Virus record (IMG/VR): IMGVR_UViG_3300040944_000171
Coordinates: 6,627-70,626 of that record
Reading direction: 5' to 3' (one strand)
Length of the DNA: 64,000 nucleotides
Source: a virus
Shown: positions 4,863 through 52,746 of the stretch, in pieces
Position numbering within the stretch: position 1 is the stretch's first letter
Layout: each line of letters opens with the position of its first letter
Position numbers and translations under genes: made by a program
The notes under the pieces: generated by a model
Told to the model about the DNA's origin: nothing
The model's input: the letters and a program-made list of their open reading frames with translations, nothing else
Databases searched by the model: none

Positions 4863-5300
4863 TCAGAGGAGGCCGGGCTGGCTGACCTGGAGGAATGGAC
4901 GCGCGGCCGCCGGAGCCGCCAGCCCCGCCGCCCGCTCGTGACCACGGTGACCCGCGACCCGGCCGCTGGCGGGCGTCGACGGGGTGATGTACCCCGCGTT
5001 GCCGCGCTGGCCGATGGCGGTGGTGATGACCTCGGCGACGACCAGGGCGCCTCCGCCCATGAGCGACTCCGAGACGTCCGAGTGCGGCCACTCGGCGATC
5101 TGGGCGACCAGGCCGACGAGCAGCGCGCCGATGCCGACATCCAGGCCGGAGTTCTCAATGAACGAGAGCGGCGGAGTCGGCGTGCCCGTGGTGTTGGCAG
5201 GGTTGCGCTGCCAGCGGTCGGTGTCCCAGGACCGGGAGAGGCCCGTGCCGACGCCGAGCACGGCCTCGGTGCCGAGGACGGCGAATGGGAAGCGGTACAC
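4863..5300 (-). CDS. virion membrane protein (paralog of 5525..5953)
   Basis: GTG start after GGAGG; LGVGTGL...AIGQRGNAG...PGLL*. Confidence 0.65.
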   Translation of the reverse strand: MYRFPFAVLGTEAVLGVGTGLSRSWDTDRWQRNPANTTGTPTPPLSFIENSGLDVGIGALLVGLVAQIAEWPHSDVSESLMGGGALVVAEVITTAIGQRGNAGYITPSTPASGRVAGHRGHERAAGLAAPAAARPFLQVSQPGLL

Positions 5301-5429
5301 GGCCCCACGACCTCCAGATGGCGATGGCTGACATGTCGCCATGCTCTGGGAGCCGCCTCCCCGGGGGCCTCACGCTTTGGGACGGGCTTGGCCGAGACCG
5401 GATGCGCGCTCCCAAAGCGTGACGCCTGG

Positions 5430-5463
5430 ATCGTAGCCGAGGGCGGAAATCTTGTGGGAGATC
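5430..5463 (-). promoter_or_regulatory. putative late promoter GATCTCCC-N20-TACGAT
   Basis: motif shared by 7 structural-gene upstream regions. Confidence 0.65.
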
Positions 5464-5524
5464 GCCCGCATCTCCCCTCGGGGAGCCGGAGGAGGGCCGC
5501 CGACCCCCCTTGAGGGGGAAGCGC

Positions 5525-5953
5525 TCAGAGCAGCCCCGGCGCCGACCGCATGTCGCCGCCCGGGTAGGGGATGTTCTCGACCACGGGCACCGGAGGCGGC
5601 TTCACGGCCCCGCAGGCGGTGCAGCCGGCGGCCACGGCACCCTTGGGCCGCGTCACCCGCACCCCCCGGCCCCTTGCCGGGGTGATGTCGGCGGCCAGCA
5701 GGGTTCCCGCGTTGCGCTGGGCGATGGCGGGGATCACCTGGCCGGAGAGCCGGTTGGCCGCCACCGTGATGAGCCCGTAGCTGAGGTCGTCGTCCCACTC
5801 CAGGCCGAGACCCAACGCACCCACGACCAGCTCCACCAGGCGGAAGACGCCCGGGGCCTGCGCGAAGTGGGGCGCGAGCCACTCCACCACGGCACCGTCG
5901 GCCAGGCCGGTGCCCACGCCGAGCAGCGGCGGGACGAAGTCAAGCTTTCGCAT
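5525..5953 (-). CDS. virion membrane protein
   Basis: LGVGTGL...AIAQRNAG...PGLL*, contains CxxC; leaderless start. Confidence 0.7.
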   Translation of the reverse strand: MRKLDFVPPLLGVGTGLADGAVVEWLAPHFAQAPGVFRLVELVVGALGLGLEWDDDLSYGLITVAANRLSGQVIPAIAQRNAGTLLAADITPARGRGVRVTRPKGAVAAGCTACGAVKPPPVPVVENIPYPGGDMRSAPGLL

Positions 5954-5960
5954 GGCCCCG

Positions 5961-5994
5961 ATTACATCACGGCGCCGGAGCTCTGCGGGAGATC
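5961..5994 (-). promoter_or_regulatory. putative late promoter GATCTCCC-N20-TGTAAT (leaderless)
   Basis: motif begins 41 nt before the ATG at 5953. Confidence 0.65.
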
Positions 5995-6146
5995 GGCAGC
6001 CGGATCATCCCGGCATCCAGGCGCCGACCCAGCAGGGTCGGGATCCAGACCCGCGCCGCCTGGCGGACCAGGAAGTGCGCCTCGAGGGCGATCACCCCCA
6101 GCATCACGCCCGTGCCGAGGATGGCGAGATCGCGGCGGTCGATCAT
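5967..6146 (-). CDS. 59-aa membrane protein (absent from the ORF track)
   Basis: MIDRRDLAILGTGVMLGVIALEAHFL..., ATGA-coupled. Confidence 0.6.
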   Translation of the reverse strand: MIDRRDLAILGTGVMLGVIALEAHFLVRQAARVWIPTLLGRRLDAGMIRLPISRRAPAP

Positions 6147-6613
6147 GCAGCCCGGCCGAAGCCGCGCCGCCGGGACGGGGTGATCGGCGGGCCGCCGGGC
6201 GGGGCCTTGGCCTGGGGGGCGCGCTTGGTCACCTGGCCAAACCCGCCCCGGCCCGTGGTGCCGCCGCCCTCGGCGGTCACCCGCTGCTCCAGGCCGACGC
6301 CGCCCTGGCTACTGGCGGTGAAGCCGCCGGAGGCCCCGAAGGTGGGCGGGGCGGGCACGCCGATGGACTCGACCGGCGGCGGGGCCACGTCGTACCCCTC
6401 GTGCTTGGCGACCTTGGTCTCCACGATCCACCAGCCCACCCCGAGCGCCCCCACCGCCCCGGCGGCGAGCAGCCACCACTTGGTCGCCGTGGAGATGGGG
6501 CCGCTGGCGGCGGCGCTGCCGAAGCCCGAGAGCACCGACTCGATGCGCTGCTGCACGGTGGGGTCGAGCACGGCAATGGCGAAGAGGATGAGGAGGATCG
6601 CTCCGATCGGCAT
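6143..6613 (-). CDS. two-TM membrane protein
   Basis: MPIGAILLILFAIAVL...; C-terminal PPITPSRRRGFG. Confidence 0.65.
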   Translation of the reverse strand: MPIGAILLILFAIAVLDPTVQQRIESVLSGFGSAAASGPISTATKWWLLAAGAVGALGVGWWIVETKVAKHEGYDVAPPPVESIGVPAPPTFGASGGFTASSQGGVGLEQRVTAEGGGTTGRGGFGQVTKRAPQAKAPPGGPPITPSRRRGFGRAA

Positions 6614-6954
6614 CAGGGTCCAGCTCCTGCGTTGGGTCCGGGGAGATAGATGGTGATGTACCAGAAGACGATCCAGCCGGTGCCGAGGATGGTCTGGTCC
6701 TGCTCCCAGATCTCCATCTCGTTGACGGCGGTGGCCACCCCCTGCGAGATCATCTGCTCCGCCACCTGCTGCGGCTGGGGGGGCTGGCCGATGGACGAGC
6801 CGAAGATCTGCCACACCTTGATCCCGAGGCGGTCGGCGTACGCCTTCGCCGTGGGTGGCCCCTTGCCCAGGAGCTGGCTGAAGACGAGGCTCCACCCCTG
6901 GCCCGACGGTGGACGCAGCGATGCCGCCTTGCCGATGTTGAAGAGGGTCGCCAC
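6613..6954 (-). CDS. hypothetical structural-region protein
   Basis: GTG start 7 nt after a TACCCT -10 box; TGATG-coupled to the next gene. Confidence 0.55.
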   Translation of the reverse strand: MATLFNIGKAASLRPPSGQGWSLVFSQLLGKGPPTAKAYADRLGIKVWQIFGSSIGQPPQPQQVAEQMISQGVATAVNEMEIWEQDQTILGTGWIVFWYITIYLPGPNAGAGP

Positions 6955-6961
6955 GACCGCC

Positions 6962-6996
6962 AGGGTACCGCCTCCGGGTGGTGCCCTTGGGAGATC
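6962..6996 (-). promoter_or_regulatory. putative late promoter GATCTCCC-N21-TACCCT
   Basis: shared motif with the same spacing. Confidence 0.6.
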
Positions 6997-7005
6997 GGAG
7001 GTGGT

Positions 7006-15683: not shown

Positions 15684-15805
15684 CGCTGTCCTCCCTTGCG
15701 GCGCTCGCGCGCCTCGATCCGCTGCCGGATGGTCTCGGCGGTAGTGGGTCAGTTTGAGCTGCGCCGGGGTTGACGGCCGGGGTCCGGGTGTGCTTCCGTT
15801 CGACT

Positions 15806-16051
15806 ATGCCTGACCGCTCACGCAAGAACCGCCCCGCCGACTTGAACCGCCTCGCCGTCTCCATTGTGGACGAGGCTGTGGGCGAGGCCCCCGACCCGGA
15901 CGCCGGGAAGGACCCTGCTGCCGTGTCTCTGGGGCGACGGGGCGGCCTGAAGGGCGGCAAGGCACGGGCGGCGAGGATGACCCCGGAGGAGCGGACGGCC
16001 CTGGCGCGCAAGGCGGCCGCGGTTCGCTGGCACGGCCCAGAAGGCGGGTAG
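15806..16051 (+). CDS. small basic IS-associated protein
   Basis: RPADLNRLA...KDPAAVSLGRRGGLKGGKARA...ARKAAAVRW, a family commonly found next to such transposases. Confidence 0.8.
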   Translation: MPDRSRKNRPADLNRLAVSIVDEAVGEAPDPDAGKDPAAVSLGRRGGLKGGKARAARMTPEERTALARKAAAVRWHGPEGG

Positions 16052-16097
16052 GTCCCCCGCGCGCCCAAGTTCTTCGCCCGAGCTGCGCTGGCTCTGA

Positions 16098-17030
16098 CTA
16101 ACTAGCTTTTGGGGCACCCCGCAAGAATCGCGCCACCTGCGCTACCGACAGCTTGGCTGGGTCGGATACATCGGGGATCTCCAGCCCATCGGAAAAGAAC
16201 ACGACCTCTCGCCCCTTGTAGCGTACAGAGGCCCCGTAGGCGATGTCATAGGTGACCAGCCGCCGGCCTCGGTAAAGCGCACGGACCTCGGGTTGGTCGT
16301 CATACGAGACCATCCAAGGCATCGGCAGCTTGCGGACGAGCTTCGCAATCTTGGCGTGGTCGCGCGGCTCGTAGACGTTCCGGTAAAGATCCTGCCCCTT
16401 GCTGTAATACGGCGGGTCGAGGTAGACGAGGGTCTTCGCTCCGACATGTGGCGCCACATCCCTTAGAAAGACGGCGCCGTCGAGATTGTACACTTCGATC
16501 CGGCTGCGCCACCGCCCAATTCGCTCAATACGACGAACGAGGTCTCGACGATTGTACCGGGCGCCCATCTTCCATTTCCCGGTTTGTTGACGCCCACCGA
16601 TAATGCCTCCCGTAAGCACCCCTGAGCGGTTGACTCTGTTCAAGTAGAGTGTCGAGAAGGCCAGTTCCAGGGGCTCGGCGTTGATTGCCACCTGGACCAT
16701 CCGTTGGCGATCCCATTCCTCAACAGTGAGTGGGGCGTCGTTGACGAGGCGGCATAGCTCATCGGTGTGGTCACGGCAGGCCATCCAGAAGGCGTATACA
16801 CCGCGATCCAGATCGTTCAAGTAGATCCGTTGCGCATAGTCGCCGTACAGAAGTGCCAAGGCAACGGCACCACCGCCCGCATATACCTCCACATAGTTGC
16901 CGTCCAGCAGCCCGTTTGTGCGGAATACGAGGGTCAGGAAGTTGGCGAGTTTGCGCTTGCCACCCGGATAGCGCAATGGAGAGTAGAACGCTGCGGTGCC
17001 GACTCTATGTCGTTGTGGGGGCTGGCTCAC
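16098..17030 (-). CDS. DNA adenine methyltransferase (Dam/D12 class)
   Basis: SPLRYPGGK, EVYAGGGAV, LNDLD, YLDPPY, WMVSYD. Confidence 0.92.
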   Translation of the reverse strand: MSQPPQRHRVGTAAFYSPLRYPGGKRKLANFLTLVFRTNGLLDGNYVEVYAGGGAVALALLYGDYAQRIYLNDLDRGVYAFWMACRDHTDELCRLVNDAPLTVEEWDRQRMVQVAINAEPLELAFSTLYLNRVNRSGVLTGGIIGGRQQTGKWKMGARYNRRDLVRRIERIGRWRSRIEVYNLDGAVFLRDVAPHVGAKTLVYLDPPYYSKGQDLYRNVYEPRDHAKIAKLVRKLPMPWMVSYDDQPEVRALYRGRRLVTYDIAYGASVRYKGREVVFFSDGLEIPDVSDPAKLSVAQVARFLRGAPKAS

Positions 17031-18373
17031 GCCCAGAGCGCCTCGATCAGATGGGCGAACTTGTCCCACACGGCTCTCAGGTCGTTGGCGCTCGGGGTCA
17101 TGTCTGGATTATGCACGAAAGCATTGAGGTTGGTAACGAGCGTGAGCTTGTCGGGGTCGCGAAGCGCTTCCCGAACCGGGAGCGTCTCGGCCTTGCTCAT
17201 CACAGCGTTGGCTTCCAAGTCATCGAGGACGCCGTTGGCCTTCTGCTGGAGTTTCTTATCCCAGCCGGCCAGCTTAGCGAGGTGTGGGTTCCGCTTGATG
17301 TAGTCGTCGATGCTCAGCTCGATGAAGGTGCGGAACAGTACGGCTACGGCGTTAGGCGCATCGTTCAGAGTGACCTTTCGCTTCAACTCGTGGTAGATGT
17401 CGTTGATTCTGCTGACGGCGATGGCCACCGTGAAGTCGGCTGGGATCATCCTAGTGCGCGAACTGCTATGGCGGCGGTCCTTGGACTTCGTCGTGGACCC
17501 TGTGGCTTTCTCCGGGGCCTCGTCGAGCGGTGCTGAGACGGACGTGCGCGTGGATGGATCGGGAAGGTCTGCAGTAGAGAGCTTGTTGACGTAACGTGCT
17601 CGATCCTCCTTGGACATCAGGTCGCCGACCTTCACTGCGCCTGTCCCGATGTCGTCGACGAGCTTCGTCAGGCCCTTGAGAACCTCAGTCTTTGGATAGT
17701 CCGTGACCACCTTGCCACTGACGATGTCGATCCCTAGCCGCTCGCGCACACGAGGAGTGGTCAGAGCACGAGCTAGGGTGCTCACAGGATAGTTGCCTTT
17801 CTTGTGGCGCTCAATGGTCTCGGCGCTCGGATGTCCCGCTCGGATAACGAAGTCGAGCAGTTGCATGTGGGGAGGCGTGGCGGCCTCCCGCCGGGAGCGG
17901 TGCCGCGTCTTCTGTTGGGCCGTCCACTCGACGAGACCCTCGCCGTCACCCTGCCCCCCATGGAACAGTTCCACCCATATGTTGGCGTCGTCCCGCTTCT
18001 CGAACACGACGCACGGAACCTCGGACAGAGGGTCGTACGCGCTCGCGAGCGTCCGAAGCTGCGCCATCTGGCTGTCCGCGAGAAAGCCCTGGAGGGTTTC
18101 CGGCTGCTCCAGAGCCTTGAGCGCCACCAGACGCCGGTTCGCGTCGAGGACGATGTAGTTGTCCTCATCGGGGATCACGATGAAGCGCTGGGCGGGACTG
18201 AGCCCGTTCTGAGCTATGTGGCGCGCGAGGGCAAGGAGCTTCCCCTTTTGTTCGGACGCAAGAGCCTCGATCGCCTCTCTCTGATTGTCGGGGTCGGTCG
18301 CAACGCGGGGGTTCTTGAGATCGAGTTTCAACTTGGACAACTCGATGTCGTCTGGATAGGGGTGGTCGGGCAT
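17027..18373 (-). CDS. ParB/Srx-like N-terminal domain protein with HEPN-like C-terminus (putative defence nuclease)
   Basis: LKLDLKNPR...YIVLDANRRLVALKAL; C-terminal LFRTFIELS...LNAFVHN; GTGA-coupled to the methylase. Confidence 0.6.
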   Translation of the reverse strand: MPDHPYPDDIELSKLKLDLKNPRVATDPDNQREAIEALASEQKGKLLALARHIAQNGLSPAQRFIVIPDEDNYIVLDANRRLVALKALEQPETLQGFLADSQMAQLRTLASAYDPLSEVPCVVFEKRDDANIWVELFHGGQGDGEGLVEWTAQQKTRHRSRREAATPPHMQLLDFVIRAGHPSAETIERHKKGNYPVSTLARALTTPRVRERLGIDIVSGKVVTDYPKTEVLKGLTKLVDDIGTGAVKVGDLMSKEDRARYVNKLSTADLPDPSTRTSVSAPLDEAPEKATGSTTKSKDRRHSSSRTRMIPADFTVAIAVSRINDIYHELKRKVTLNDAPNAVAVLFRTFIELSIDDYIKRNPHLAKLAGWDKKLQQKANGVLDDLEANAVMSKAETLPVREALRDPDKLTLVTNLNAFVHNPDMTPSANDLRAVWDKFAHLIEALWA

Positions 18374-18550
18374 ATTTCACCTACTCTGCGCTTGGTAAGG
18401 CCAGCTATCAAAGGATAGTGTAACATGCCCTTTGGCATACAGCCAACCAACATGACAGAGCGGTGGTTTCAGAAGAGAGCCAGGTGTCGCCGAACCCTTC
18501 GGCCAGCGCGACGGCTGAGCCAAACTGACTGCGGACCCACTATCCCTGTA

Positions 18551-18579
18551 TTGACATTGCCAGGACGCTCAGGCATAAT
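18551..18579 (+). promoter_or_regulatory. sigma70-type leaderless promoter of the transposase
   Basis: TTGACA-17-CATAAT, with ATG 7 nt downstream. Confidence 0.8.
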
Positions 18580-18586
18580 GGTCAGT

Positions 18587-19423
18587 ATGAACAGGCTATC
18601 CCAGGCTCAGCGGGTGGCGGTGGTCAAGGCGCTGGTGGAGGGCACCAGCATCCGGGGCACCGTCCGCCTGACCGGCGTCGCCAAGAACACGGTCACCAAG
18701 CTCCTGGTCGACCTCGGGGCTGCCTGCTCCGAGTACCAGGACCGGGTGTTCCGCGACCTTCCCTGCCGTCGCCTCCAGGCCGACGAGATCTGGAGCTTCT
18801 GCAACGCCAAGGCCAGGAACGTCCCCGAGGCTCACCGGAGGGAGTTCGGCTGGGGCGACGTCTGGACGTGGACCGCCATCGACGCGGACACCAAACTCGT
18901 CCCCTCGTGGGTGATCGGAGAGCGCACCATCGGCGACGCCATCGCCTTGATGGACGACCTCAAGGGCAGGCTGGCCAACCGGGTGCAGTTGACCACGGAC
19001 GGGCACAAGGCCTACCTGGAGGCCGTCGAGGGGGCCTTCGCGTTGGACATCGACTACGCCCAACTCATCAAGCTCTACGGCAACGACCCCGAGGCCGAGA
19101 AGCGGTACAGCCCCGCCAAGTGCGTGGGCGTCGAGGTTCACCGGGTCAGCGGGAATCCTGCTCTGGCCGACGTCTCCACCAGCTACGTGGAGCGGCAGAA
19201 CCTCACGATGCGGATGTCGATGCGCCGCTTCACCCGGCTCACCAACGCCTTCAGCCGGAAGGTGGAGAACCTGGCCGCGGCCGTCTCGCTCCACTTCATG
19301 TTCTACAACTTCGCCAGGCCCCACAAGACGCTGGCTAACCCGTATCCCCGGACTCCTGCGATGGCGGCCGGGGTGGCTGACCACGTTTGGAAGATCGAGG
19401 AGATCGTCGCGCTGCTCGGGTAG
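18587..19423 (+). CDS. IS1-family DDE transposase
   Basis: N-terminal HTH; QADEIWSF, TTDG, STSYVERQNLTMRMSMRRFTRLTNAFSRK. Confidence 0.92.
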   Translation: MNRLSQAQRVAVVKALVEGTSIRGTVRLTGVAKNTVTKLLVDLGAACSEYQDRVFRDLPCRRLQADEIWSFCNAKARNVPEAHRREFGWGDVWTWTAIDADTKLVPSWVIGERTIGDAIALMDDLKGRLANRVQLTTDGHKAYLEAVEGAFALDIDYAQLIKLYGNDPEAEKRYSPAKCVGVEVHRVSGNPALADVSTSYVERQNLTMRMSMRRFTRLTNAFSRKVENLAAAVSLHFMFYNFARPHKTLANPYPRTPAMAAGVADHVWKIEEIVALLG

Positions 19424-19805
19424 GCGGCTCCAAACCCTGGCTCTTCAGCACAGCGTCTGCCAGTTTGTTCACCGCTTCCGCCAGCTCTTCGGTGCGGTCA
19501 CGTGTAAACGCCCGCTCGCTGGCACGGCTGCTGCGCTCGTGGGTCTCTTTCTCACGCTCAAGGAGCCTTTCCCGCTCTCGTTGCCGCTTCCTGCCGGGCA
19601 GCCACCCTCCCGTAGCCCCAGCTACGAGGCAGTAGAGCCCGAATCCGAAGGCCAGGGAGGCGATGGCTGGCTCCAAGGCAGCGAGCCACAGCGGCGCATG
19701 GATCGCGCCTGTCAAGAGGAGCGGTCCCACGGCGGCAAGAAGCGTTACTCCGGCCGTCACGAGCGCGGTCCCGACCCCGATCCAGGCCCGCCGCCACTCA
19801 GCCAC
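19335..19805 (-). CDS. membrane passenger protein
   Basis: two TM segments plus a charged tail, inside the transposon. Confidence 0.5.
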   Translation of the reverse strand: MAEWRRAWIGVGTALVTAGVTLLAAVGPLLLTGAIHAPLWLAALEPAIASLAFGFGLYCLVAGATGGWLPGRKRQRERERLLEREKETHERSSRASERAFTRDRTEELAEAVNKLADAVLKSQGLEPPTRAARRSPRSSKRGQPPRPPSQESGDTG

Positions 19806-20009
19806 GAACGGATGATGCGGCGGCGCTTGCCCGTCTGGTATGTCATTTGGCGACCGCCTAGGTCAAACTGACCCACTACCGTCTCGGCCCGCTGCTTGCG
19901 GTGGCCGTCCTCGCGCCGCCGCTGGCGATCGCGCTCGCGCAGCTCGCGGTTGCTGTGCGAGGTGGGCGGGGGCACGAAGCCCCCGCCCACAGTGCTCATC
20001 ATCGGAGGA

Positions 20010-22043: not shown

Positions 22044-22622
22044 TCAATGATGGTGCGCGTGCAGCGGCACGGGGCGGCGGCGGGCCACGCCCGCCCGGGC
22101 GGCGCGGCGGAGCAGCGACCGGCTGATCGTCCCGCCCAGCTGCCGGCGCGCCTTGAGCAGCTCCCCGGAGAGCCGGGCCGTCTCCCGCCTCAGATGGTCG
22201 GCGTGCGCCCGGATGCGGCGGCGCTCCTCGAGCAGCTCCTCATACCCCCGCTCCGACTCCTCGCCGTACACGTCGCGCGCGGTGAAGCCGCCCTGGCGGG
22301 CGTGCTCCAGGCGGGCGAGCCGCGACCGGTGGCTCTTGGAGCCCTTGGCCTCGATCTGGGCGCTGGTCCAGTCCAGCGCCTGGCGGAGGGCCTCGCCCTC
22401 CTGCTCGATCCCGTAGAGGTCGCGCTCGATCTCCTCCACGTCCTCGTCGGTGTAGGGGAGGGGGACGAAGGCGCGCCGGGCCGCCTCCCGGATCCCGCGC
22501 AGCCGCTTGCCGACCGGGCAGGGGTGGCTCCCTCCGCCGCCGCACCCGCACCTGGAGGTGCGGAGCCGGGGATAGGAGATCACGCAGGCGAACCGGCCCC
22601 GGGGGTCGCGCGGCTGGCTCAC
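22044..22622 (-). CDS. array protein (coiled coil) with N-terminal QPRDPRGRF and C-terminal tag
   Basis: GTGA-coupled; ends RRRPVPLHAHHH*. Confidence 0.7.
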   Translation of the reverse strand: MSQPRDPRGRFACVISYPRLRTSRCGCGGGGSHPCPVGKRLRGIREAARRAFVPLPYTDEDVEEIERDLYGIEQEGEALRQALDWTSAQIEAKGSKSHRSRLARLEHARQGGFTARDVYGEESERGYEELLEERRRIRAHADHLRRETARLSGELLKARRQLGGTISRSLLRRAARAGVARRRPVPLHAHHH

Positions 22623-23188
22623 GCCGCCCTCCCCCGCCGCCGCAGGTAATTGAAATGGCAGCGGAGGGCGTGGTCCAGGAAGCAGATCGGGCAGCGGCAG
22701 CCCCAGTTGCTGTACCCGTTCCGCCCATGGCGCGGATCGCCCGGGGGGAGGCCGCGCTGGCGGCGGCGTGCGTGCAGGACGCGGGCATGGGCGGCGGCGC
22801 CCACCATGCACGGCTTGCAGTGGCAGCCCCGGGCGTAGCGGGCCACGGTGCCATGCTCCGGCATCACCGCCCCCCGGATCTCGGGTGGCCCAGCCTCGCC
22901 GTGGAGGCGGATGCGATCCCCATGGACATGGCAGTACCCACTGCCGCCCCGGTACCAGCCACCATCCCGAGTGCAGCCCTCCACCCGGCAGGCTCGCGCC
23001 TCGAGCGGCGGGTGCCAGCCGCGCCCCCGGAGGGGCAGGCCACGGATCCTCACGAGGTCGCGGCAGATCCCCTCCGAGACCCCGAAGAGCCGGTCGATCT
23101 GGCGCGTCGTCAGCCGCCCCTCCAGGTACACCGCCGCCATCGCGTCGCGCTCTGCGGCGGTCAGGTGGTAGGTGGGGCGCCCGCTCAC
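22619..23188 (-). CDS. HTH plus Zn-finger DNA-binding protein
   Basis: HTH; CRVEGC..YCHVH; HGT...GCHCKPC; GCRCPIC. Confidence 0.75.
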   Translation of the reverse strand: MSGRPTYHLTAAERDAMAAVYLEGRLTTRQIDRLFGVSEGICRDLVRIRGLPLRGRGWHPPLEARACRVEGCTRDGGWYRGGSGYCHVHGDRIRLHGEAGPPEIRGAVMPEHGTVARYARGCHCKPCMVGAAAHARVLHARRRQRGLPPGDPRHGRNGYSNWGCRCPICFLDHALRCHFNYLRRRGRAA

Positions 23189-23592
23189 CGCTTGCCGCCG
23201 TGGCGGTGGTGGTGGATGGCCGCCGCGTGGCGGCTCCGGTACCGCCCGGTGGTTCGCTCGCCCTTGCGGCGGGCGCGCTGGGGACGGTTGCGGGCGGGCT
23301 CCTCCTCGATGAAGCTCAACTCCAGGCCACCGATCCGCACCCGGTGGGGGGGCGGCGCGGCCGCGCCGCCGCCGCGAGAGGAGGTAGCCCGGTGAGAGGA
23401 TGCCAGGGGGGCCGGCGGGATGCGGGAGAACTTCGCAGGATCCGGCACCCCCTGGCGCCGCTTGATACGGTACTCCGCCTCGCGCCCGTATGCCTCCCAG
23501 TTGACCGATGGGTCGCGGGGATTGAAGCCCTGGGCCTCGGCGATGCGCCGACCCAGGGTGGCGAGCTCAGCGGGCCGGGTGTCCGCTACCAC
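23185..23592 (-). CDS. array protein with C-terminal tag
   Basis: ends RSRHAAAIHHHRHGGKR*. Confidence 0.65.
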   Translation of the reverse strand: MVADTRPAELATLGRRIAEAQGFNPRDPSVNWEAYGREAEYRIKRRQGVPDPAKFSRIPPAPLASSHRATSSRGGGAAAPPPHRVRIGGLELSFIEEEPARNRPQRARRKGERTTGRYRSRHAAAIHHHRHGGKR

Positions 23593-23598
23593 CGCCCC

Positions 23599-23853
23599 CT
23601 ACCGTCCCCGCCGCCGCCGGGTCGCCCATCCCTTCCTGGCCGCCGCCGACCGCTTGGCGTGGCTCTCGCCCTGGACGATGCGGCGCAGCGTCAGCGCGAG
23701 CCGCGCCCGCTTGCCCTTCGTGCCTGGCGCCTTGGCGGCGGCGCGGAGCTTGGCCACCGGGATCTTCTCGCTCTGGGGGACATGCAGCTGCCGGTGCAGG
23801 GCGCCCGGCTTGCCCTTCTTCAGGGCCTCCTGGATCCAGCGCGTGCGAGCCAT
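23599..23853 (-). CDS. small basic phage protein
   Basis: WIQEALKKGKPGALHRQLHVP..EKIP...KRARLALTL; SAAARKGWATRRR. Confidence 0.8.
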   Translation of the reverse strand: MARTRWIQEALKKGKPGALHRQLHVPQSEKIPVAKLRAAAKAPGTKGKRARLALTLRRIVQGESHAKRSAAARKGWATRRRRGR

Positions 23854-23873
23854 GTCTTCAGCCTCCCGTGTTA

Positions 23874-24173
23874 TCAGCCAAACCGGCCCATCCGATCGCG
23901 CCGCTGGGCCCGCGCCGCCACCCGGCGGCGCTCCAGTTCGCGGCGCTCCTCGGCGCTCAGATCCGCCTCGCCGAGGCGGGGGCGGGGGCGGCCGCGCCCC
24001 TCGTGGTACTTCACCCAGCGCCGCGCCGCCTCGCCCGCCTGGGCCTGCGTCCGCCTGGTCCCCGCCGCCCCCTGCGAGCGGTGGACGACCCGGCCCCCCC
24101 CGTCGCGGATCACCGCGATCACGGCCTCACCGTGGGTGACGTACTCGATCTGGTACCCCCGGTAGGCGGGCAT
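23874..24173 (-). CDS. array protein
   Basis: TGATG-coupled; ends AQRRDRMGRFG*. Confidence 0.7.
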   Translation of the reverse strand: MPAYRGYQIEYVTHGEAVIAVIRDGGGRVVHRSQGAAGTRRTQAQAGEAARRWVKYHEGRGRPRPRLGEADLSAEERRELERRRVAARAQRRDRMGRFG

Positions 24174-24547
24174 CAGTGGCCTCCGAAGACGAAGGCGCGG
24201 GGATGGGCGATGGGGTGGCCCGCCCGCTCGGCGGCGTGCACCTGCTCCCAGCGCACATCGGTGCGGGTGCGGGCATGGCCAGCGGTGGTGATGATCCCGT
24301 GGCCGCCGCCCATCACCCGCCGGTACTCGGCGAGATCCTGGTGGTGGCGCCAGATCGCGTACTGCACCGCCTGGCGACGGATCGCCGGGGTCCAGCGCGG
24401 CTCCCTGGCCGCCGCCTTGTCAATGGCCGCCTCGATCTCCCGCGCCACCTCCTGATCGGGCGTGCCCACATGGACGCGGCCGAGGTGGAAGTCGATGGCC
24501 CGAGTTGGCACCAGGGGATCCACGCGCGGCTTCCGCTCCACCGCCAT
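24173..24547 (-). CDS. array protein
   Basis: starts at a TAG-CG-ATG junction. Confidence 0.75.
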   Translation of the reverse strand: MAVERKPRVDPLVPTRAIDFHLGRVHVGTPDQEVAREIEAAIDKAAAREPRWTPAIRRQAVQYAIWRHHQDLAEYRRVMGGGHGIITTAGHARTRTDVRWEQVHAAERAGHPIAHPRAFVFGGH

Positions 24548-24549
24548 CG

Positions 24550-24912
24550 CTACCTCCCTCCGTGCGCGTGCGTGTGGACGGGCACCGCGCGGCGGCGCCA
24601 GTACGGCTGCGGGTTGAGACTGGTCGAGCCGTGCAGCACCCGCTCAACGTAGGCCTCGCGGTAGGGGTTGCTCGCCGGGATGGAGATGCCCTGGTGGTGC
24701 ACATGCTCCCCGAAGATGCGGGAGAGGTCATCCTGATCGGACTTCGTCATGCCCCCGTACTGATCCAGTCGCGACGGTGGGGCGGTCACCGTGATCCAGC
24801 CCCAGGCCGTGCCCCGGCCGCCGCGCACGCTCCAGGTCTTGGTGCTGCGGCGGCGCAGCCCGGCGCGCAGGGCGGTGATCGCCTTGTTGCGGTCGTTCTC
24901 CCGCATCGCCAT
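24550..24912 (-). CDS. array protein with C-terminal tag
   Basis: MAMRENDRN...; ends RRRAVPVHTHAHGGR*. Confidence 0.8.
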   Translation of the reverse strand: MAMRENDRNKAITALRAGLRRRSTKTWSVRGGRGTAWGWITVTAPPSRLDQYGGMTKSDQDDLSRIFGEHVHHQGISIPASNPYREAYVERVLHGSTSLNPQPYWRRRAVPVHTHAHGGR

Positions 24913-24914
24913 CG

Positions 24915-25403
24915 CTAGCGCCCTCCGTGCGCGTGGGTGTGGACGGGGGCGGTGCGGCGGCGAGCACGCCCACCCACCAGCCGGAGGTGGCGCGAGAAGT
25001 TGCCCTCGCCATGGATCTCGCGGTGCACGGGGCCGAGGAGTTCCCACATCGCCCCGAACTTGTGCTGCCAGCGCTCACCGTTGGCGAGCCGCACCACCTG
25101 GCCCGGCCCGGGCACCGAGGCGATCCGCTCCGAGGCCCGGCTCCTCGAGCGCCCCGGGGCCACCTTCAACTCCACCCAGTGGTTGCTGTGATAGTGGATC
25201 GTGTAGGTGTCCCCGCTGCGGACGATGCGCGGCCCGTGGCCGCCCCAGGAGAGCACCCTCGTGTACCACGCGTGCTCGGCGGGGATGTCCACGTCCTGGC
25301 CGATGAAGTAGTTCTCCAGGGTGTGGCTGCGCGCCGAGACGGCCCGATCCCACATCGTCCGAGCCTCGATGCTGTTGCGCTTGACCGTGACCAGCTCAGC
25401 CAT
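24915..25403 (-). CDS. array protein with C-terminal tag
   Basis: ends RRRTAPVHTHAHGGR*. Confidence 0.8.
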   Translation of the reverse strand: MAELVTVKRNSIEARTMWDRAVSARSHTLENYFIGQDVDIPAEHAWYTRVLSWGGHGPRIVRSGDTYTIHYHSNHWVELKVAPGRSRSRASERIASVPGPGQVVRLANGERWQHKFGAMWELLGPVHREIHGEGNFSRHLRLVGGRARRRTAPVHTHAHGGR

Positions 25404-25405
25404 CG

Positions 25406-26095
25406 CTACCGCCTCCGCTTGCTGAACCGGCCGTCACGGTGCCGGGGCTGCTGCCGGGCCTGGCGGGATCGCCGAGCGAGCTCTACCTGGAGCGCTGAGG
25501 GGCGGCGGCGGTAGTAGCCGGAGGGGCGGGCGTTCTTGCCGGCGGTCGTGATCGACACCGCCCCCGCCTTGTTCTGGGCTAGGTAGCCGGCCGCGATCAG
25601 CGACCGCACCGCCGCCGCCGCCGCCTGCGGCGAGATGTCCTTGCGGCGGAGTTCATCCTGGCGGTACCCGCTCTTGATCCCGCCATAGATGTTGAGCACC
25701 TTCCCCTCCACGTCGCTCAGCGGCGCCGCCGGGGCCGCGAGGCTGAGGCTCTGCAGCAGATCGGGGTGCGCGTAGATGGTGGCGAAGGTGCGCGGGTAGC
25801 CCTCCTCGCCCTTTATCAGCACCGTCCCCGGGGGCAGCGTCCGCTTCGTCGTGTCCAGATCCACCCGGTTCCGGGGGTTGAACATATTGGCCCCGCCCCA
25901 CGACCCCATCATGGTCTCGTGGCGACCGGTCACCATGTCGACCAGGGTGGCGAAGCCGCGCTGGCCCGCCCCACCGCTCACCGTCAGCGAGACCTCGGTG
26001 GCAGGCACGACGCTGATGTCCCTGGCCCCGTACTTCACGCTGGCGAGCGCAGAGCGGATCGCTGGGCTGAGCCGCTTGACCTCAATCTGGGCCAT
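25406..26095 (-). CDS. array protein with winged-helix-like C-terminal domain and basic tail
   Basis: SLIAAGYLAQNKAGAVSITTAGK; ends ARQQPRHRDGRFSKRRR*. Confidence 0.8.
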   Translation of the reverse strand: MAQIEVKRLSPAIRSALASVKYGARDISVVPATEVSLTVSGGAGQRGFATLVDMVTGRHETMMGSWGGANMFNPRNRVDLDTTKRTLPPGTVLIKGEEGYPRTFATIYAHPDLLQSLSLAAPAAPLSDVEGKVLNIYGGIKSGYRQDELRRKDISPQAAAAAVRSLIAAGYLAQNKAGAVSITTAGKNARPSGYYRRRPSALQVELARRSRQARQQPRHRDGRFSKRRR

Positions 26096-26100
26096 CGCCG

Positions 26101-26382
26101 CTACCCCCCCCCGTGCGCGTGGGTGTGCAGCGGGGCGGCGCGCTTGCGAAGGTGCCCATAGGAACTCTTGCCGCTACGATGGGTGCGCCCGTGGCGAAGA
26201 TCCGCCTCATGCTGCCAGCGGCGCACGGTGGCCCTCAGCTCGGGCGTGCTCTCCACCACGTCCGCCGTGTCACCCATCCGCCGCCAGGCCACGGCCTCGC
26301 GATACGCCTGTCCCGGCAAGCGGATGGGGCCAGTCCAGCCCTCGTGGCCGCTCGCAGTGACATGGTGGACGTAGAAGCTCAC
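26101..26382 (-). CDS. array protein with C-terminal tag
   Basis: GTG start at TAG-CG-GTG; ends RKRAAPLHTHAHGGG*. Confidence 0.75.
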   Translation of the reverse strand: MSFYVHHVTASGHEGWTGPIRLPGQAYREAVAWRRMGDTADVVESTPELRATVRRWQHEADLRHGRTHRSGKSSYGHLRKRAAPLHTHAHGGG

Positions 26383-26384
26383 CG

Positions 26385-26861
26385 CTACCGCTCCCCGTGG
26401 GCGTGGTGGTGGATGGGGGCACGATGGCGACGGGCCGCGCCGGAGCGGACCGGGAGTGACCTCCGGCCCAGGAGATGCGTCTCCCTCATCTCCTCGCGCT
26501 TCCACCGCTGCGCGGCGGCCTCGGTGCTGAAGTCCTGAAACTCCACGGGCTTGCCCTGCTCATCGACCACCGTGCCGCGCCACTTGCCGTTGGCGAGATG
26601 AGTGATCCTCACCAGGGCGCTGCGGGTGCGCGAGCGTCCGACGGCTGCCCTGATCGCCTTGGCATCGGTGCGCGAGAAGCCGATCATCGGATCCGCCTGG
26701 GCCAGGATGGTCGAGTCGTAGGCGGGATCCCAGGTGATGACACTTGGGCTCCCTGGCGCCTGAGAGATGAGCGCGAAACCACGCTCCCACGGCCGGGGTG
26801 CCAGCATCATCAGCTGGCGCACGCTCCGGGGACTCCCCATCCGCGCCATCCGCCGCCCCAT
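26385..26861 (-). CDS. array protein with C-terminal tag
   Basis: ends RRHRAPIHHHAHGER*. Confidence 0.75.
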   Translation of the reverse strand: MGRRMARMGSPRSVRQLMMLAPRPWERGFALISQAPGSPSVITWDPAYDSTILAQADPMIGFSRTDAKAIRAAVGRSRTRSALVRITHLANGKWRGTVVDEQGKPVEFQDFSTEAAAQRWKREEMRETHLLGRRSLPVRSGAARRHRAPIHHHAHGER

Positions 26862-26863
26862 CG

Positions 26864-27154
26864 CTACCGCCCTCCGTGGGTGTGGCTGTGCAGCGGGGCG
26901 GCGCGACGGCGCGCCAGCCCAGAGGCGAGCAGTGCCCAGTGCGTCCTCCGGCTCCGTCCCTTGACGGCGACATTCACCTGGGTGCTCCCGGCCCACGAGA
27001 TCTCGCGGCCGGTGTCCAGCGTGACCACCACGCGCCCGAGATCCCGACGCACGGCGATGACATCGCGCAGATCAGCGTGCCCGGATCCCGGGTGGTACAC
27101 CTGGACCGCGTCTCCCACTCTCAGCCGCCTAGCGGGGCGCTGGACGAAACTCAC
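26864..27154 (-). CDS. array protein (SH3-like beta) with C-terminal tag
   Basis: ARRLRVGD...; ends RRRAAPLHSHTHGGR*. Confidence 0.75.
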   Translation of the reverse strand: MSFVQRPARRLRVGDAVQVYHPGSGHADLRDVIAVRRDLGRVVVTLDTGREISWAGSTQVNVAVKGRSRRTHWALLASGLARRRAAPLHSHTHGGR

Positions 27155-27459
27155 CGCTGCCGCCTCCCATGGGTGTGGCTGTGCAGCGGGGCGGCGCGGC
27201 CCCGGGGGCGGCCCTTGGCGTGCTGCAGCGCATAGCGCTGGGCAAGCCCCAGGCTGCGGTAGCTGGAGAGTTTGTTCGGACCCGCCTGCTCCTCCACCAC
27301 GAGCCGCTCGCCGCGACGGCGGGCCTCCGCGCGGCGGGCGGGGCTCTGGAGGTTCCGCATCATGCGGACGAACCGTGCCGCATCGCTGCGGCTGGGCAGA
27401 TCAGAGCCCAGCACCACGAAACCGTCGGGCCGCTCCAGGAAGACGCGGTATAGGGGCAT
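27151..27459 (-). CDS. array protein with C-terminal tag
   Basis: ends RGRAAPLHSHTHGRRQR*. Confidence 0.75.
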   Translation of the reverse strand: MPLYRVFLERPDGFVVLGSDLPSRSDAARFVRMMRNLQSPARRAEARRRGERLVVEEQAGPNKLSSYRSLGLAQRYALQHAKGRPRGRAAPLHSHTHGRRQR

Positions 27460-27461
27460 CG

Positions 27462-27671
27462 CTACCGCCTCTTGCGGCGACGCGCTCGGCCCGTGAACGG
27501 CCCCACCGTGACCCGGCCGTTCGGGTGGACGCGCACCCGCATCTTGTAGGCCAAGCTGGGCCACTGCGCGACCTCACCGGGGGTCAGATCAAACTCGATG
27601 TAGCCCGGATGGCGGGTGCCGTCGCCAGCCCGGGCTGCGGCCCGGAAATACTCAGCGATGCTCTGAGACAT
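27462..27671 (-). CDS. array protein with Arg tail
   Basis: ends GRARRRKRR*. Confidence 0.7.
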   Translation of the reverse strand: MSQSIAEYFRAAARAGDGTRHPGYIEFDLTPGEVAQWPSLAYKMRVRVHPNGRVTVGPFTGRARRRKRR

Positions 27672-27674
27672 TGG

Positions 27675-27992
27675 CTACCGACCTCCGTGGCCGTGGGTGT
27701 GGATGGGGGCAGTACGGCGCCGACGGCGTCGGGCACGACCCTCTGGCAGGAGGCGCACCTCGAACTTCTTGCGGCCACCGGGTCGCATGTCCCCGCGCAG
27801 GAAGTACACCTCTGGACGCTTGTGCTCGCCCGTCATGTGCTCCTCCCATACCGCCTCCGCCCAGCGGCGGGCGGTACGGTCATCGGGCGCGTCCACGAGC
27901 ACCATCAGCCCACCCGTGCCAGGTGGCCAGTCACGGGTGTGTCCCACCACGCCCATCATGTCCACATGCCTGGCGATCGGGTACTCGGCCAT
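27675..27992 (-). CDS. array protein with C-terminal tag
   Basis: MAEYPIAR...; ends RRRRRRTAPIHTHGHGGR*. Confidence 0.75.
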   Translation of the reverse strand: MAEYPIARHVDMMGVVGHTRDWPPGTGGLMVLVDAPDDRTARRWAEAVWEEHMTGEHKRPEVYFLRGDMRPGGRKKFEVRLLPEGRARRRRRRTAPIHTHGHGGR

Positions 27993-27994
27993 CG

Positions 27995-28411
27995 CTACCG
28001 CCTCCGATGCCGCGTCGCGGCCGGGTGCGAGTAGGGATGTGCGGGATGGCGGTGGTAACGCACCGCGCGGCGCCGAGCTGTCCCGCCCGCCGCCAACCGC
28101 CTCGCGGCCGCCTTGGCCGCCGCCCCCGAGGGCCACGAGTGGAACACGTCGCCCACCGGGCCGTCGATGGTATCCATGCCCCCGCTAGCATTGAGGCGCT
28201 TGACCCGGAAGATCCTGGCGCCCCCGCCGGGAGGCTGCTGCGACTCGGTGAAGTAGATGCCCCCAGGCCCGGTGTAGCCGACGGCCGGGAACCGGCTGCC
28301 GAAGAACCGGTTGCTCTGGCGGTCGAAGAAGTGGTGCTCCCGGCCCGCCGCGCGAGCACGCTGTAGGTAGAGATCGCGGATCTCATCCATCCCGATCTCA
28401 TCTCGGGCCAT
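27995..28411 (-). CDS. first array protein (phage HFF..RFF.SR family) with degenerate tag
   Basis: HHFFDRQSNRFFGSR...YFTESQ; ends RRRAVRYHRHPAHPYSHP...RHRRR*. Confidence 0.8.
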   Translation of the reverse strand: MARDEIGMDEIRDLYLQRARAAGREHHFFDRQSNRFFGSRFPAVGYTGPGGIYFTESQQPPGGGARIFRVKRLNASGGMDTIDGPVGDVFHSWPSGAAAKAAARRLAAGGTARRRAVRYHRHPAHPYSHPAATRHRRR

Positions 28412-28631
28412 GGCGGCACCCTCCCGGCGGCTGGCTTGCCACCGTACACCGCACCGTACACCTCTCCGGCCCGGGAGGACAAGGGGGTGGCGCGATTGCC
28501 ACTTTCAGTGCATCGCGAAGTAGTCGCGATCCCGACGCGCGACCTCCTTGAGGGCGCGATTCCAGGCGCGGCGACAAGTCGCCGACTCCGGCTCTGGATC
28601 GGGCGGCGGGCTGGCGGCGGTCGGTGCCGGG

Positions 28632-28913
28632 TCAGGAGCGGGGGGCATGACGAACCAGGATCTCCCGCAACAGGGCGCTCATGGATCGACCGTCCCGCAG
28701 CGCCCGCCGCCGGTAGCGGCGGAGCAGGGGATCGGGGAGGCGGAGGGTCACTCTGGGCGTCTTGCCCGCACCGGAGAGCGAGCGCCGTCCCGCAAAGGCC
28801 GCCGGCCCGGGGACGGGCGTCCCGAAGTCGTCAGGTCCCATGGCCTCGAAGCGGTCGGCATAGACGGCCGCCTCGCTCTCGGTGATGCCGTCACGGCGGC
28901 GCGTGAGTGCCAT
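28632..28913 (-). CDS. RHH/CopG antitoxin
   Basis: GRRSL...RVTLRLPDPL...ALRDGRSMSALLREIL. Confidence 0.8.
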   Translation of the reverse strand: MALTRRRDGITESEAAVYADRFEAMGPDDFGTPVPGPAAFAGRRSLSGAGKTPRVTLRLPDPLLRRYRRRALRDGRSMSALLREILVRHAPRS

Positions 28914-29152
28914 CAGAGGTGCCTCGCGTAGAGACGGCGCCAGACCCGTCTCAACCTCATCGCGTGGACGATGGCGGATCCCTCACGGGTCTCCACCACG
29001 CCGACCTCGAGCGGCACGCCGCTGGCGTCGTGGCCGAGATGCATCCTCATCTCGCCTCGGGGAACGACGACCACGGTGTTGCGGTACGCCTCCAGCATCC
29101 GCCGCACCGAGATCCGGTGCCGATGCGCCGACTGAGCGATCCTCGGCTCCAC
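28913..29152 (-). CDS. putative type II toxin (RelE/BrnT-like)
   Basis: SAHRHRIS...LGHDASGVPLEVGVV...IVHAMRLR; coupled to the RHH gene. Confidence 0.7.
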   Translation of the reverse strand: MEPRIAQSAHRHRISVRRMLEAYRNTVVVVPRGEMRMHLGHDASGVPLEVGVVETREGSAIVHAMRLRRVWRRLYARHL

Positions 29153-29370
29153 ATTGAACCGATTATGTCAGACGGCCGAGGGGATGTCACCCGGGGCTCT
29201 GGGGGGCCGGGGGTTGCCCACGGAGATAGGACCTTTGGACGGGATTCTGTCTCAGATCCCCCGGCCCCTCGGCCCCCGATCCTACGCCCTCCCGCCCCCT
29301 AGCACACCGGCTCCGGCGGGGGTAAGATGCCAAGCGCCCCCCGGAAGCCTCGTCCTCCCGGGGGGCGCTT

Positions 29371-36309: not shown

Positions 36310-36343
36310 GATCTCCCTGCGGCGCCCGGGTGGCCCGTAGCAT
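36310..36343 (+). promoter_or_regulatory. putative late promoter GATCTCCC-N20-TAGCAT (leaderless)
   Basis: motif begins 41 nt before the ATG at 36351. Confidence 0.65.
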
Positions 36344-50508: not shown

Positions 50509-51525
50509 ATGGCCGGTCTGGATCCCGATGCGGCCGGCGAGGTCGCGACCTTCGTCACCCGGGGAGCGCTGACGCTGGTGAGCGAGGCCGCCCGCGGCGC
50601 CCTGGCGGGGCGGATGACGGGGAGCTTCGTGACCGAGGAGGTGGACGGGAAGCGGTACGGCCCGCTGCCGCCGCTCAGCGAGAGCGTCCACCTGGGCGAC
50701 ACCATCGGGGCGACGGTGATCGCGGAGCAGGAGGCGGCCGACCTCGAGGGCCAGCGGATCACCCTGCCCCCCGGGGTCTATGACACCGTCGTCGGTCTCG
50801 ACTACGAGCGGGGCATCGTCCGGATGTGCGTGGAGGGCGAGGCGCCCCAGTCGGTGCTCCTGGTGGGCGACCCCGGCACCGGCAAGTCCATCCTCATGCA
50901 GGCGACCCGCGAGGCCCTGCCCGAGGAGGGCAAGTACATCGACGGCAAGCAGATGACCCCGGCCGCGCTCGCCAAGGTGGTCGCCGACCCGCGCGTCCGG
51001 GTGCTCTTCATTGACGAGATCGAGAAGGCGGATCGGGATGCCCAGGAGTCGCTCCTGGAGCTGATGCTGGGCCGGGTGTCCACGGCCAAGGTGGGCAACA
51101 TCCAGGAGATCGTCAAGGATCTGCGGGTGATCGCCGCCGCCAACGACCCGGAGCGGATGTCGGCGGCACTCCGCGACCGCTTCATCGAGATCGAACTCCC
51201 CCACTACAGCCTCCCCCAGCGGCGCGAGGTGATGAGCAAGGTGCTCCAGGCCCGCCACGGGGTGGCTGAGGAGGATGCGGAGCGGATCGCCAGCGAGGTC
51301 GCCCCCCACTCCACCTCTATCCGGGATGCGGAGCAGGTGGCCTGGGCGGAGAAGGAGAACCCGGCGCTCGCCCGCGAGATGACGGAGCGGATCCGCCGGC
51401 GTGCTGGCGGCGCCGAGGCGGCCGTGCCGCCGGGCACCGCACCACCGCGCACTGCACGCACTGCAACCCGCAAGGCTGCGCCCAAGCCGCCGAAGCCCCG
51501 GCCCCGGGCCGCCGCGCCAGCCTGA
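50509..51525 (+). CDS. AAA+ ATPase
   Basis: GDPGTGKS, LFIDEIEK, RVIAAAN, LRDRF arginine finger. Confidence 0.9.
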   Translation: MAGLDPDAAGEVATFVTRGALTLVSEAARGALAGRMTGSFVTEEVDGKRYGPLPPLSESVHLGDTIGATVIAEQEAADLEGQRITLPPGVYDTVVGLDYERGIVRMCVEGEAPQSVLLVGDPGTGKSILMQATREALPEEGKYIDGKQMTPAALAKVVADPRVRVLFIDEIEKADRDAQESLLELMLGRVSTAKVGNIQEIVKDLRVIAAANDPERMSAALRDRFIEIELPHYSLPQRREVMSKVLQARHGVAEEDAERIASEVAPHSTSIRDAEQVAWAEKENPALAREMTERIRRRAGGAEAAVPPGTAPPRTARTATRKAAPKPPKPRPRAAAPA

Positions 51526-52531: not shown

Positions 52532-52626
52532 CCGGACACCGCACCGTCGATGCTCCCCGGGGCGGCCGGGGCGTGGTACGGTGCGGGGGGCAGCGCTTGC
52601 GGGACGGGGCGTCGTCGGAGGTCGCC

Positions 52627-52746
52627 GTGTACACCCACTCCCACCCCCATAAGCACATGGGCAAGAAGGGGCACAAGAGCCACAAGAAGGGCCGGAGCCG
52701 GGCGCGTCAGCCGCGCAACCGCCTCGGCCAGTTCAAGCGCAAGTAA
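52627..52746 (+). CDS. 39-aa protamine-like His/Lys/Arg peptide (absent from the ORF track)
   Basis: GGAGG-5nt-GTG; MYTHSHPHKHMGKKGHKSHKKGRSRARQPRNRLGQFKRK*; hairpin at the stop. Confidence 0.8.
   Translation: MYTHSHPHKHMGKKGHKSHKKGRSRARQPRNRLGQFKRK

Follow-up and report, generated by a model that had tools for sequence, protein, structure and literature searches.

The capsid-targeting sequence of bacteriophage T4 is an N-terminal tag that is cut off by the prohead protease, and the proteins that bear it are found in the phage head. A repeat of a different kind occurs in cluster K mycobacteriophages, where a 13-bp consensus, GGGATAGGAGCCC, lies 3-7 bp before translation starts; upstream of this start-associated sequence (SAS) stand paired 17-bp imperfect inverted repeats (the extended SAS, ESAS), and the published account gives the role of both as not known (PMC3203893). 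In this report, we examine an element that can be compared with each of these systems. It lies in a 64,000-nucleotide stretch of the virus record IMGVR_UViG_3300040944_000171 (hereafter “the window”), which runs from base 6627 to base 70626 of one contig of 70,626 bases, with a GC content of about 72%. The element, T1, is a 15-residue C-terminal tail rich in Arg and His, RRRxAP[LVI]HxHxHGG(R), that stands at the stop codon and ends nine of the 16 proteins encoded by an array of small genes. We found that the T1 peptide itself is under purifying selection, and that the tail and the translational coupling to the next gene use the same DNA. An earlier reading of the sequence (the original prediction) held that T1 loads unrelated proteins into the virus particle; our results point, tentatively, to a different role.

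Like SAS and ESAS, the T1 DNA occurs in a single orientation in an array of non-structural genes, lies just before starts, contains a Shine-Dalgarno (SD) core and is followed by genes of unrelated families; in both, the upstream stop is sometimes inside the repeat. Unlike them, T1 comprises about 45 nt of coding sequence that is always read in one frame, changes mostly in synonymous or conservative ways and survives where there is no start context, and SAS and ESAS are not described as peptides conserved in frame (PMC3203893). The SAS consensus gave two matches with up to two mismatches (3.98 expected), neither at an array junction, and in place of ESAS-type inverted repeats the T1 DNA forms a direct-repeat family for which only weak pairing of an arm to the SD is predicted. 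With the T4 capsid-targeting sequence, T1 has in common that it is a short peptide shared by unrelated, basic, polymorphic proteins of one virus. The analogy, which the original prediction drew, fails on position: T1 is C-terminal in nine of nine cases, and the T4 tag is N-terminal and cleaved. No protease family was found among the open reading frames (ORFs) scanned. T1 also resembles arginine-rich motifs and basic tails in general, in that there are three to eight net positive charges in 20 residues, low confidence in structural modeling that suggests disorder, and attachment to small domains; to our knowledge, known arginine-rich motifs have no counterpart of the strict P-[LVI]-H-x-H-x-H-G-G core.

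The array (22044-28411, minus strand) consists of 16 closely packed ORFs, g01 to g16, that run leftward from 28411 to 22044. They are 69-229 codons long, have the GC content at third codon positions that is typical of coding sequence, and encode proteins whose isoelectric point (pI) is in every case at least 10.4. The successive gaps from g01 to g16 are 2, 3, 2, -4, 2, 2, 5, 2, 2, 2, -1, 20, 6, -4 and -4 nt, with four overlaps. After trimming of the tails, an all-versus-all BLASTP comparison of the 16 array proteins and four neighbors (n = 20) detected no pairwise similarity (best E 0.018), and hhalign of a g06 C-domain profile against the 19 other proteins reached a probability of at most 9.3%. 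These results, with the ORF calls, bear out the expectation of about 16 packed minus-strand genes with unrelated bodies. Among the array proteins, Pfam, PHROGs and NCBIfam yielded family matches only for g01 (Pfam DUF7447, 27.4 bits against a cut-off of 24.1) and g15 (phrog_14857, “HTH DNA binding protein”, E 3.7e-7; HTH, helix-turn-helix); none of the three databases supports the winged HTH and LPD-like domains that had been suggested. The g15 protein (22619-23188, minus strand) has an HTH-like N-terminal region and two G..(A/G)(R/Y)...GC.C..C repeats.

All nine T1 tails end at precisely the stops that the original prediction had named; the stop is the lower coordinate of each pair given here, all on the minus strand. 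The tails are RRRTAPIHTHGHGGR of g02 (27675-27722, with junction TAGCCAATG), RGRAAPLHSHTHGRRQR of g04 (27151-27204, with a GTGA overlap with g05), RRRAAPLHSHTHGGR of g05 (26864-26911, with junction TAGCGATG), RRHRAPIHHHAHGER of g06 (26385-26432), RKRAAPLHTHAHGGG of g07 (26101-26148), RRRTAPVHTHAHGGR of g09 (24915-24962) and RRRAVPVHTHAHGGR of g10 (24550-24597), together with a divergent copy, SRHAAAIHHHRHGGKR, of g14 (23185-23235, with a GTGA overlap with g15 and a weak SD) and the terminal copy, RRRPVPLHAHHH, of g16 (22044-22082), which has neither an SD nor a coupled gene. T1 makes up the last 12-17 residues before the stop in all nine, and what follows the HxHxHG core varies (R, G, ER, RRQR, GKR or nothing). 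A repeat finder independently identified a 72-nt direct-repeat family of seven copies, which are 61-79% identical to the reference; the copies at 23185 and 22044 were caught by two smaller families. In the whole 70,626-base genome, read in six frames, the pattern H.H.H occurs 21 times; nine occurrences have an upstream Arg run and a stop within eight residues, and all nine are array gene ends. T1 is confined to the array, on the minus strand, with no copy elsewhere in the 70.6-kb genome. In some contigs of up to 63 kb, a variant of g07 (P0005/P0034) has lost the stop after the G-run and reads on to ..HGGGSGDGPD, six residues more; this may be real variation or a homopolymer assembly error.

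The 3′ part of the tail DNA is also the beginning of the next gene. The sequence TAGCGATG occurs seven times in the window, where 0.67 occurrences are expected (an approximately 10-fold excess; 0 of 100 shuffles reach seven), and six of the seven are array junctions; the variants TAGCCAATG, TAGCGGTG and TAGCGGCGATG occur at other junctions in the array. The junction has the form GG(A/G)GG..TAGCGATG: the final codons of T1 (GGA GGG / CGG) double as the SD, and the next start either overlaps the stop or follows it by 2-5 nt. Our survey of the junctions thus agrees with the claim that the tag DNA supplies the SD, the stop and the next start, at six TAGCGATG junctions and three variants. T1 is nonetheless separable from this type of junction. 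Three T1-bearing genes (g04, g14 and g16) are without a TAG-type junction and three genes with such a junction (g01, g03 and g08) are without T1, and the two show no association (Fisher p = 0.61).

Several comparisons bear on whether the peptide or the DNA is maintained. By the Nei-Gojobori method, the ratio of the nonsynonymous to the synonymous proportion of differences (pN/pS) among the eight internal copies is 0.45 (14 codons) or 0.49 (12 codons) in the true frame; out of frame, the same copies give 1.21-1.22 and 2.00-2.15. Over the three codon positions, the variable sites are distributed 18/12/30. The His residues are encoded by CAC in 25 of 27 cases and by CAT in two, the aliphatic position is encoded by GTC, CTG or ATC, and at one Arg all three bases of the codon have changed (CGC to AAG), which gives Lys. 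The in-frame pN/pS and the codon positions are, by themselves, only suggestive. A comparison of g16 with its orthologue in a related contig, L017, adds an instance in which no coupled gene follows the tail. Between the two viruses, the g16 body has a pS of 0.239 and a pN of 0.051, and the 12-codon tail differs by four synonymous changes and one Val-to-Ala replacement (Fisher p = 0.015); the DNA downstream of the g16 stop is unrelated. That T1 is constrained as a peptide is indicated by the in-frame constraint, the g16/L017 comparison, the retention of the tail in a distant homologue (P0050, below) and the separability of tail and junction. Selection at the level of the peptide, beyond that on a DNA repeat, had been claimed in the original prediction and is upheld here, both across the copies and between the two viruses.

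Evidence for the portability of the tail comes from homologues of g06, a phmmer search of 1.84 billion representatives with g06 as query having found small relatives of this protein whose bodies bear T1, T2, T3 or other tails. P0050, a protein of 149 aa that is 56% identical to g06 and derives from a 68,546-nt contig, ends in RRRAAPLHHHGHGVG, i.e., it keeps T1. In P0052, P0053 and P0051, the C-domain of g06 is recognizable up to ...EM(R/K)ETH.G.GR, after which other tails follow; the homologous bodies thus share this domain and diverge in the tail. In P0054, the N-domain of g06 is followed by HSHPAHPYSHPVATKHRRR, a g01-type tail. This last tail clarifies the end of g01 at 27995, which had been regarded as a degenerate T1 copy. 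Rather than a decayed T1, it is a tail type of its own, T2 (RYHRHPAHPYSHPAATRHRRR; 27995-28060, minus strand), that is nearly unchanged on P0054. A third type, T3, has the motif RDxxGRF; it ends g12 (RRDRMGRFG; 23874-23903, minus strand), and P0053 (KRDRYGRFA) has the same kind of end as g12 and as g08, whose T3-like tail is RHRDGRFSKRRR (25406-25444, minus strand). In this virus group, then, a few proteins show at least three interchangeable tail types (T1, T2 and T3) behind one common linker, GRxR(R/T)R. Modeling of g06 with AlphaFold2, on an alignment of 12 rows, gave a mean predicted local distance difference test score (pLDDT) of 79.3 and showed two folded domains; the score falls to 48, 51 and 56 in the final three blocks of 10 residues, which suggests that T1 is disordered and outside the fold. 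The idea of the tail as a portable peptide module, in the manner of a portable short linear motif, holds up on several grounds: unrelated bodies, tail exchange on homologous bodies, in-frame constraint, retention in the 56%-identical P0050, and low pLDDT.

Some further observations concern these tails and domains. A basic linker, G-[RH]-x-R-[TSR]-R, occurs at domain ends in the array proteins and in P0050-P0061, and also before tails; the linker between the two domains of g06 has a pLDDT below 50 at residues 77-81. The g06 homologues are seen as single domains, as fusions and with varied combinations of tails, a pattern that suggests frequent fusion and fission at these linkers. The T3 motif is also present at the N-terminus of g16 and at the end of an ORF at 52573-52746 (plus strand). 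The latter encodes 57 aa with a pI of 11.9, contains HSHPHKH, ends in the T3-like GRSRARQPRNRLGQFKRK and has no family match. An AP2-like assignment of the g06 C-domain was dropped, as Pfam gives no support for it with g06, its homologues or P0062, and Foldseek of the g06 model against the Protein Data Bank (PDB) returned nothing at E ≤0.001, with only weak YegP-like rows. Four long matches of the g06 search (P0049, P0058, P0062 and P0063) were set aside as repeat proteins.

The reading that we prefer, and hold tentatively, is that T1 is a portable, basic, His-rich handle by which early or accessory proteins would bind, probably, nucleic acid or one shared partner, and that its last codons serve also as the next ribosome-binding site (RBS). 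T1 (approximately G-x-x-RRR-x-A-P-[LVI]-H-x-H-x-H-G-G-R) would be a short, probably disordered C-terminal module that has been copied onto small basic proteins with unrelated bodies, all encoded by a single leftward operon that is probably early or accessory, and it would give the whole set one common binding property. The likeliest target, inside the infected cell, would be nucleic acid, another polyanion or one common partner protein, because the bodies and the tails are all polycationic. All 16 array proteins have a pI of 10.4-12.0, and without their last 20 residues 14 of the 16 bodies still have a pI of at least 9.8; for the 84 other ORFs, which were crudely called, the median pI is 6.6, and only 16 have a pI above 10 (Fisher p = 4e-10 versus the array). 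A putative sigma-70-like promoter (29162-29190, minus strand; GTGACA-17-CATAAT with TG before the -10 element), judged from its consensus matches, precedes the leftward operon, 10 nt from its first gene; two such sites were found where 0.4 are expected. On the opposite strand, genes for a D5-type primase-helicase and a DUF5131 protein begin at 29486, and the array adjoins replication genes. If T1 is a true address or binding handle, a functional class of proteins could be recognized from sequence alone in an almost unannotatable group of viruses. T1 also illustrates that selection can act on one stretch of DNA for the peptide it encodes and, at the same time, for the translation start of the next gene, an overlap that would constrain the addition of genes to coupled operons.

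A number of points weigh against this reading. The function is deduced from charge and composition only, and the “early” timing from consensus promoter matches alone. Portability outside the window virus is represented by single proteins (one with T1, one with T2 and one with T3). The copies of T1 are not independent of each other, with 32 of 36 core bases shared between g04 and g05 and 31 of 36 between g09 and g10, and the signal by codon position weakens to 12/8/14 if minimum events are counted. The g07 tail is longer by six residues in one lineage (P0005), which means that a free C-terminus is not strictly kept. Finally, there are signs of a role at the level of RNA: RNAalifold pairs the Ala-Pro codons with the SD, and 85.2% of the cells of the alignment pair; shuffles give 77.7 ± 2.1%, with none of 500 as high as the observed value, and slid controls give 28-68%.

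This last point leads to an alternative in which the repeat is primarily a nucleic-acid element (an SAS/ESAS- or stoperator-like cassette, an SD-masking hairpin or the site of a regulator) and the peptide is a tolerated by-product. We consider this unlikely. The 3′ part of T1 is indeed SD, stop and start, TAGCGATG is 10-fold over-represented, and orientation-specific, start-associated repeats are on record from non-structural gene arrays of phages (PMC3203893). In the consensus fold, GCCCCC (the Ala-Pro codons) pairs with GGAGGGC (the SD) and CGC pairs with the GCG of TAGCG; four pairs have changed on both sides, and the tail arm pairs with the SD/start arm in five of eight single folds. On the other hand, z-scores of the single sequences against dinucleotide shuffles range from -2.05 to +1.20, with one of eight below -2, and the consensus energy is just -4.27 kcal/mol with a covariation term of +0.2. 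When the tails were recoded synonymously, the real codons beat more than 95% of recodings in start-region pairing in only two of the eight copies (fractions 0.05, 0.54, 0.74, 0.51, 0.04, 0.06, 0.23 and 0.98). Because of these z-scores, the low energy and the recoding result, we think that masking of the SD may be a secondary role, but not the cause of conservation. Nor does a site in DNA account well for T1, whose core is 53-89% identical between copies, which is poor conservation for a site bound by a protein; there is no cluster K SAS consensus, the tail recurs on P0050 at 56% identity, and g16 keeps T1 with no SD, no coupled gene and unrelated DNA downstream.

The original prediction saw in T1 a cargo-loading tag that docks proteins on the genome or the inner core for packaging and delivery at infection. 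DNA-associated internal virion proteins are often strongly basic, as are all 16 array proteins, and a tail that is portable and looks disordered is what would be expected of an address label; the basic 57-aa ORF at 52573-52746, with its HxHxH stretch and T3-like end, lies near a putative structural cluster. No result supports the loading itself, however, and the position and promoter type of the array do not suit it. A genuine promoter-like repeat, GATCTCMC-N19-22-TANNNT (five matches versus 0.04 expected), is found at 5430-5463 and 6962-6996 (minus strand) and at 36310, 45733 and 50466 (plus strand), ahead of putative structural clusters; none of the five copies precedes the array, which stands beside the replication module and behind a sigma-70-like promoter. 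No receptor can be named for the tag, because no capsid, scaffold, portal or maturation protease was recognizable among the ORFs scanned, which were not every ORF (0 of 10 large ORFs match structural families of PHROGs, and Pfam likewise gave none). Most of the presumed cargo is also dispensable, since L017 lacks g01-g14 and has a serine recombinase instead. We therefore judge virion loading distinctly improbable. A broader version, a “tail code” in which T1 (RRRxAP[LVI]HxHxHGG), T2 (HxHPAHPYSHPxATxHRRR) and T3 (RDxxGRF) behind GRxRxR would sort a rapidly changing set of small polycations to defined destinations, T1 to the packaged genome or particle interior, with a T1 cassette of about 50 nt providing whatever ORF is inserted with an address and, together with it, the RBS, stop and start that couple the next gene, seems to us quite unlikely. 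Finally, we find it very doubtful that T1 is a degron, or a handle for an unfoldase, through which an AAA+ machine of the host or the virus would remove or remodel the early proteins together. Shared C-terminal degrons are a known principle, T1 is terminal, shared and apparently disordered, and the virus encodes an AAA+ ATPase of the AAA_5/MoxR-like type (50509-51525); against this, the one to four residues (six in the variant) after the HxHxHG core are a poor fit to a defined free C-terminus, and the tail is unlike known degrons, with no PDB chain matching the tail profile at E up to 10.

Searches for T1 beyond the window virus led mainly back to its close relatives. The array had no blastn match among 50,697 phage records; in IMG/VR, the strict junction pattern (as IUPAC DNA) occurred at 0 loci, and a peptide-degenerate DNA pattern occurred at 14, in none of which the match was followed by a stop. 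A profile of eight tails, run against 5.8 billion protein clusters with the top 8000 word-sharing candidates scored at an E limit of 10, returned the window's own eight clusters only, in a search so insensitive that it missed P0050 and cannot show that T1 is absent elsewhere. In one metagenome-assembled genome (MAG), G001, the profile had eight strong matches, all on a viral contig (C25), and three weak ones. Among 374 genomes of the class of G001, strong matches were confined to G001, and 19 others matched weakly, on the Arg run; in none of the 11 weak-match loci examined outside G001 was there an in-frame terminal T1. One tag-like locus (L050, in genome G143) was rejected as out of frame and on the strand opposite the real gene. 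A scan with a profile of the tag had been proposed as a way to look for related arrays; it recovered the window's clusters and C25, and, within the limits of an insensitive search, no other array with different cargo. The literature yielded no description of the tail or of the virus, which is weak evidence of absence from print.

The bodies of the array proteins are similarly isolated. The g09 body has no relative beyond its own 90% cluster (one of 290 candidates), and that of g01 matches its own cluster only (one of 528). In tblastn searches of phages, g06 had no match and g01 one weak match. When IMG/VR was scanned with g09, with P0050 and with an alignment of the g06 family, just two loci appeared, L015 and L059, both irrelevant. 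The g06-family profile found G001 and one weak match, and no others, in the 374 genomes, and the ESM Atlas held no usable match for g16 or g09.

The virus recurs in peat metagenomes: all 24 of the runs listed, from 23 studies, hold at least half of the sampled words. It is an uncultured, high-GC peat virus of approximately 70-91 kb. The group to which it belongs is probably associated with Candidatus Dormibacteria, because a contig 99.5% identical to the window (L032) is part of a MAG with that title, although such binning is weak evidence of a host. L032 is without the IS1-family transposase region (window approximately 15740-19880), and its flanks join directly, which agrees with a recent IS1-type insertion in the window's copy. 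L032 also has a 381-nt in-frame deletion (window 27252-27632), which leaves a fusion of the g03 N-terminus with the g04 C-terminus. This form is the main one in four of four runs examined, in one of which the window's form is present as a minor contig. We considered exchange of cassettes at the tags and rejected it. The deletion (a skip from 27251 to 27633) is the sole structural polymorphism seen, and it joins at eight shared bases, an 8-nt microhomology, outside the tags; the T1 copies share 19-32 of 36 core bases. The suggestion that the repeat serves cassette swapping by recombination is accordingly weak.

Another close relative, L017, is 96% identical at the N-terminus of the D5 protein. 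It keeps only g15 and g16, the latter with its T1 tail, and a 491-aa large serine recombinase (L017:3568-5043, plus strand) replaces g01-g14; most of the array is therefore accessory. In L017, segments that correspond to window 5129-6998 and 21085 onward are directly joined. The group is mosaic, and the recombinase gene suggests that at least one member may integrate.

Upstream of the array, on the same strand (28632-29152), lie two small genes for a 79-aa protein and a 93-aa Arc/RelB-like ribbon-helix-helix protein. The 79-aa protein has a weak match to a PHROG annotated “toxin” (E 0.0013), and its gene has an ATGA overlap with the ribbon-helix-helix gene. As the leading genes of the operon, the two may form a toxin-antitoxin or a repressor pair. 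In the 220-nt gap before g01, a direct repeat, GTGTACGGTG, occurs twice with a 2-nt spacer (28440-28462, minus strand), and could be an operator or an internal promoter.

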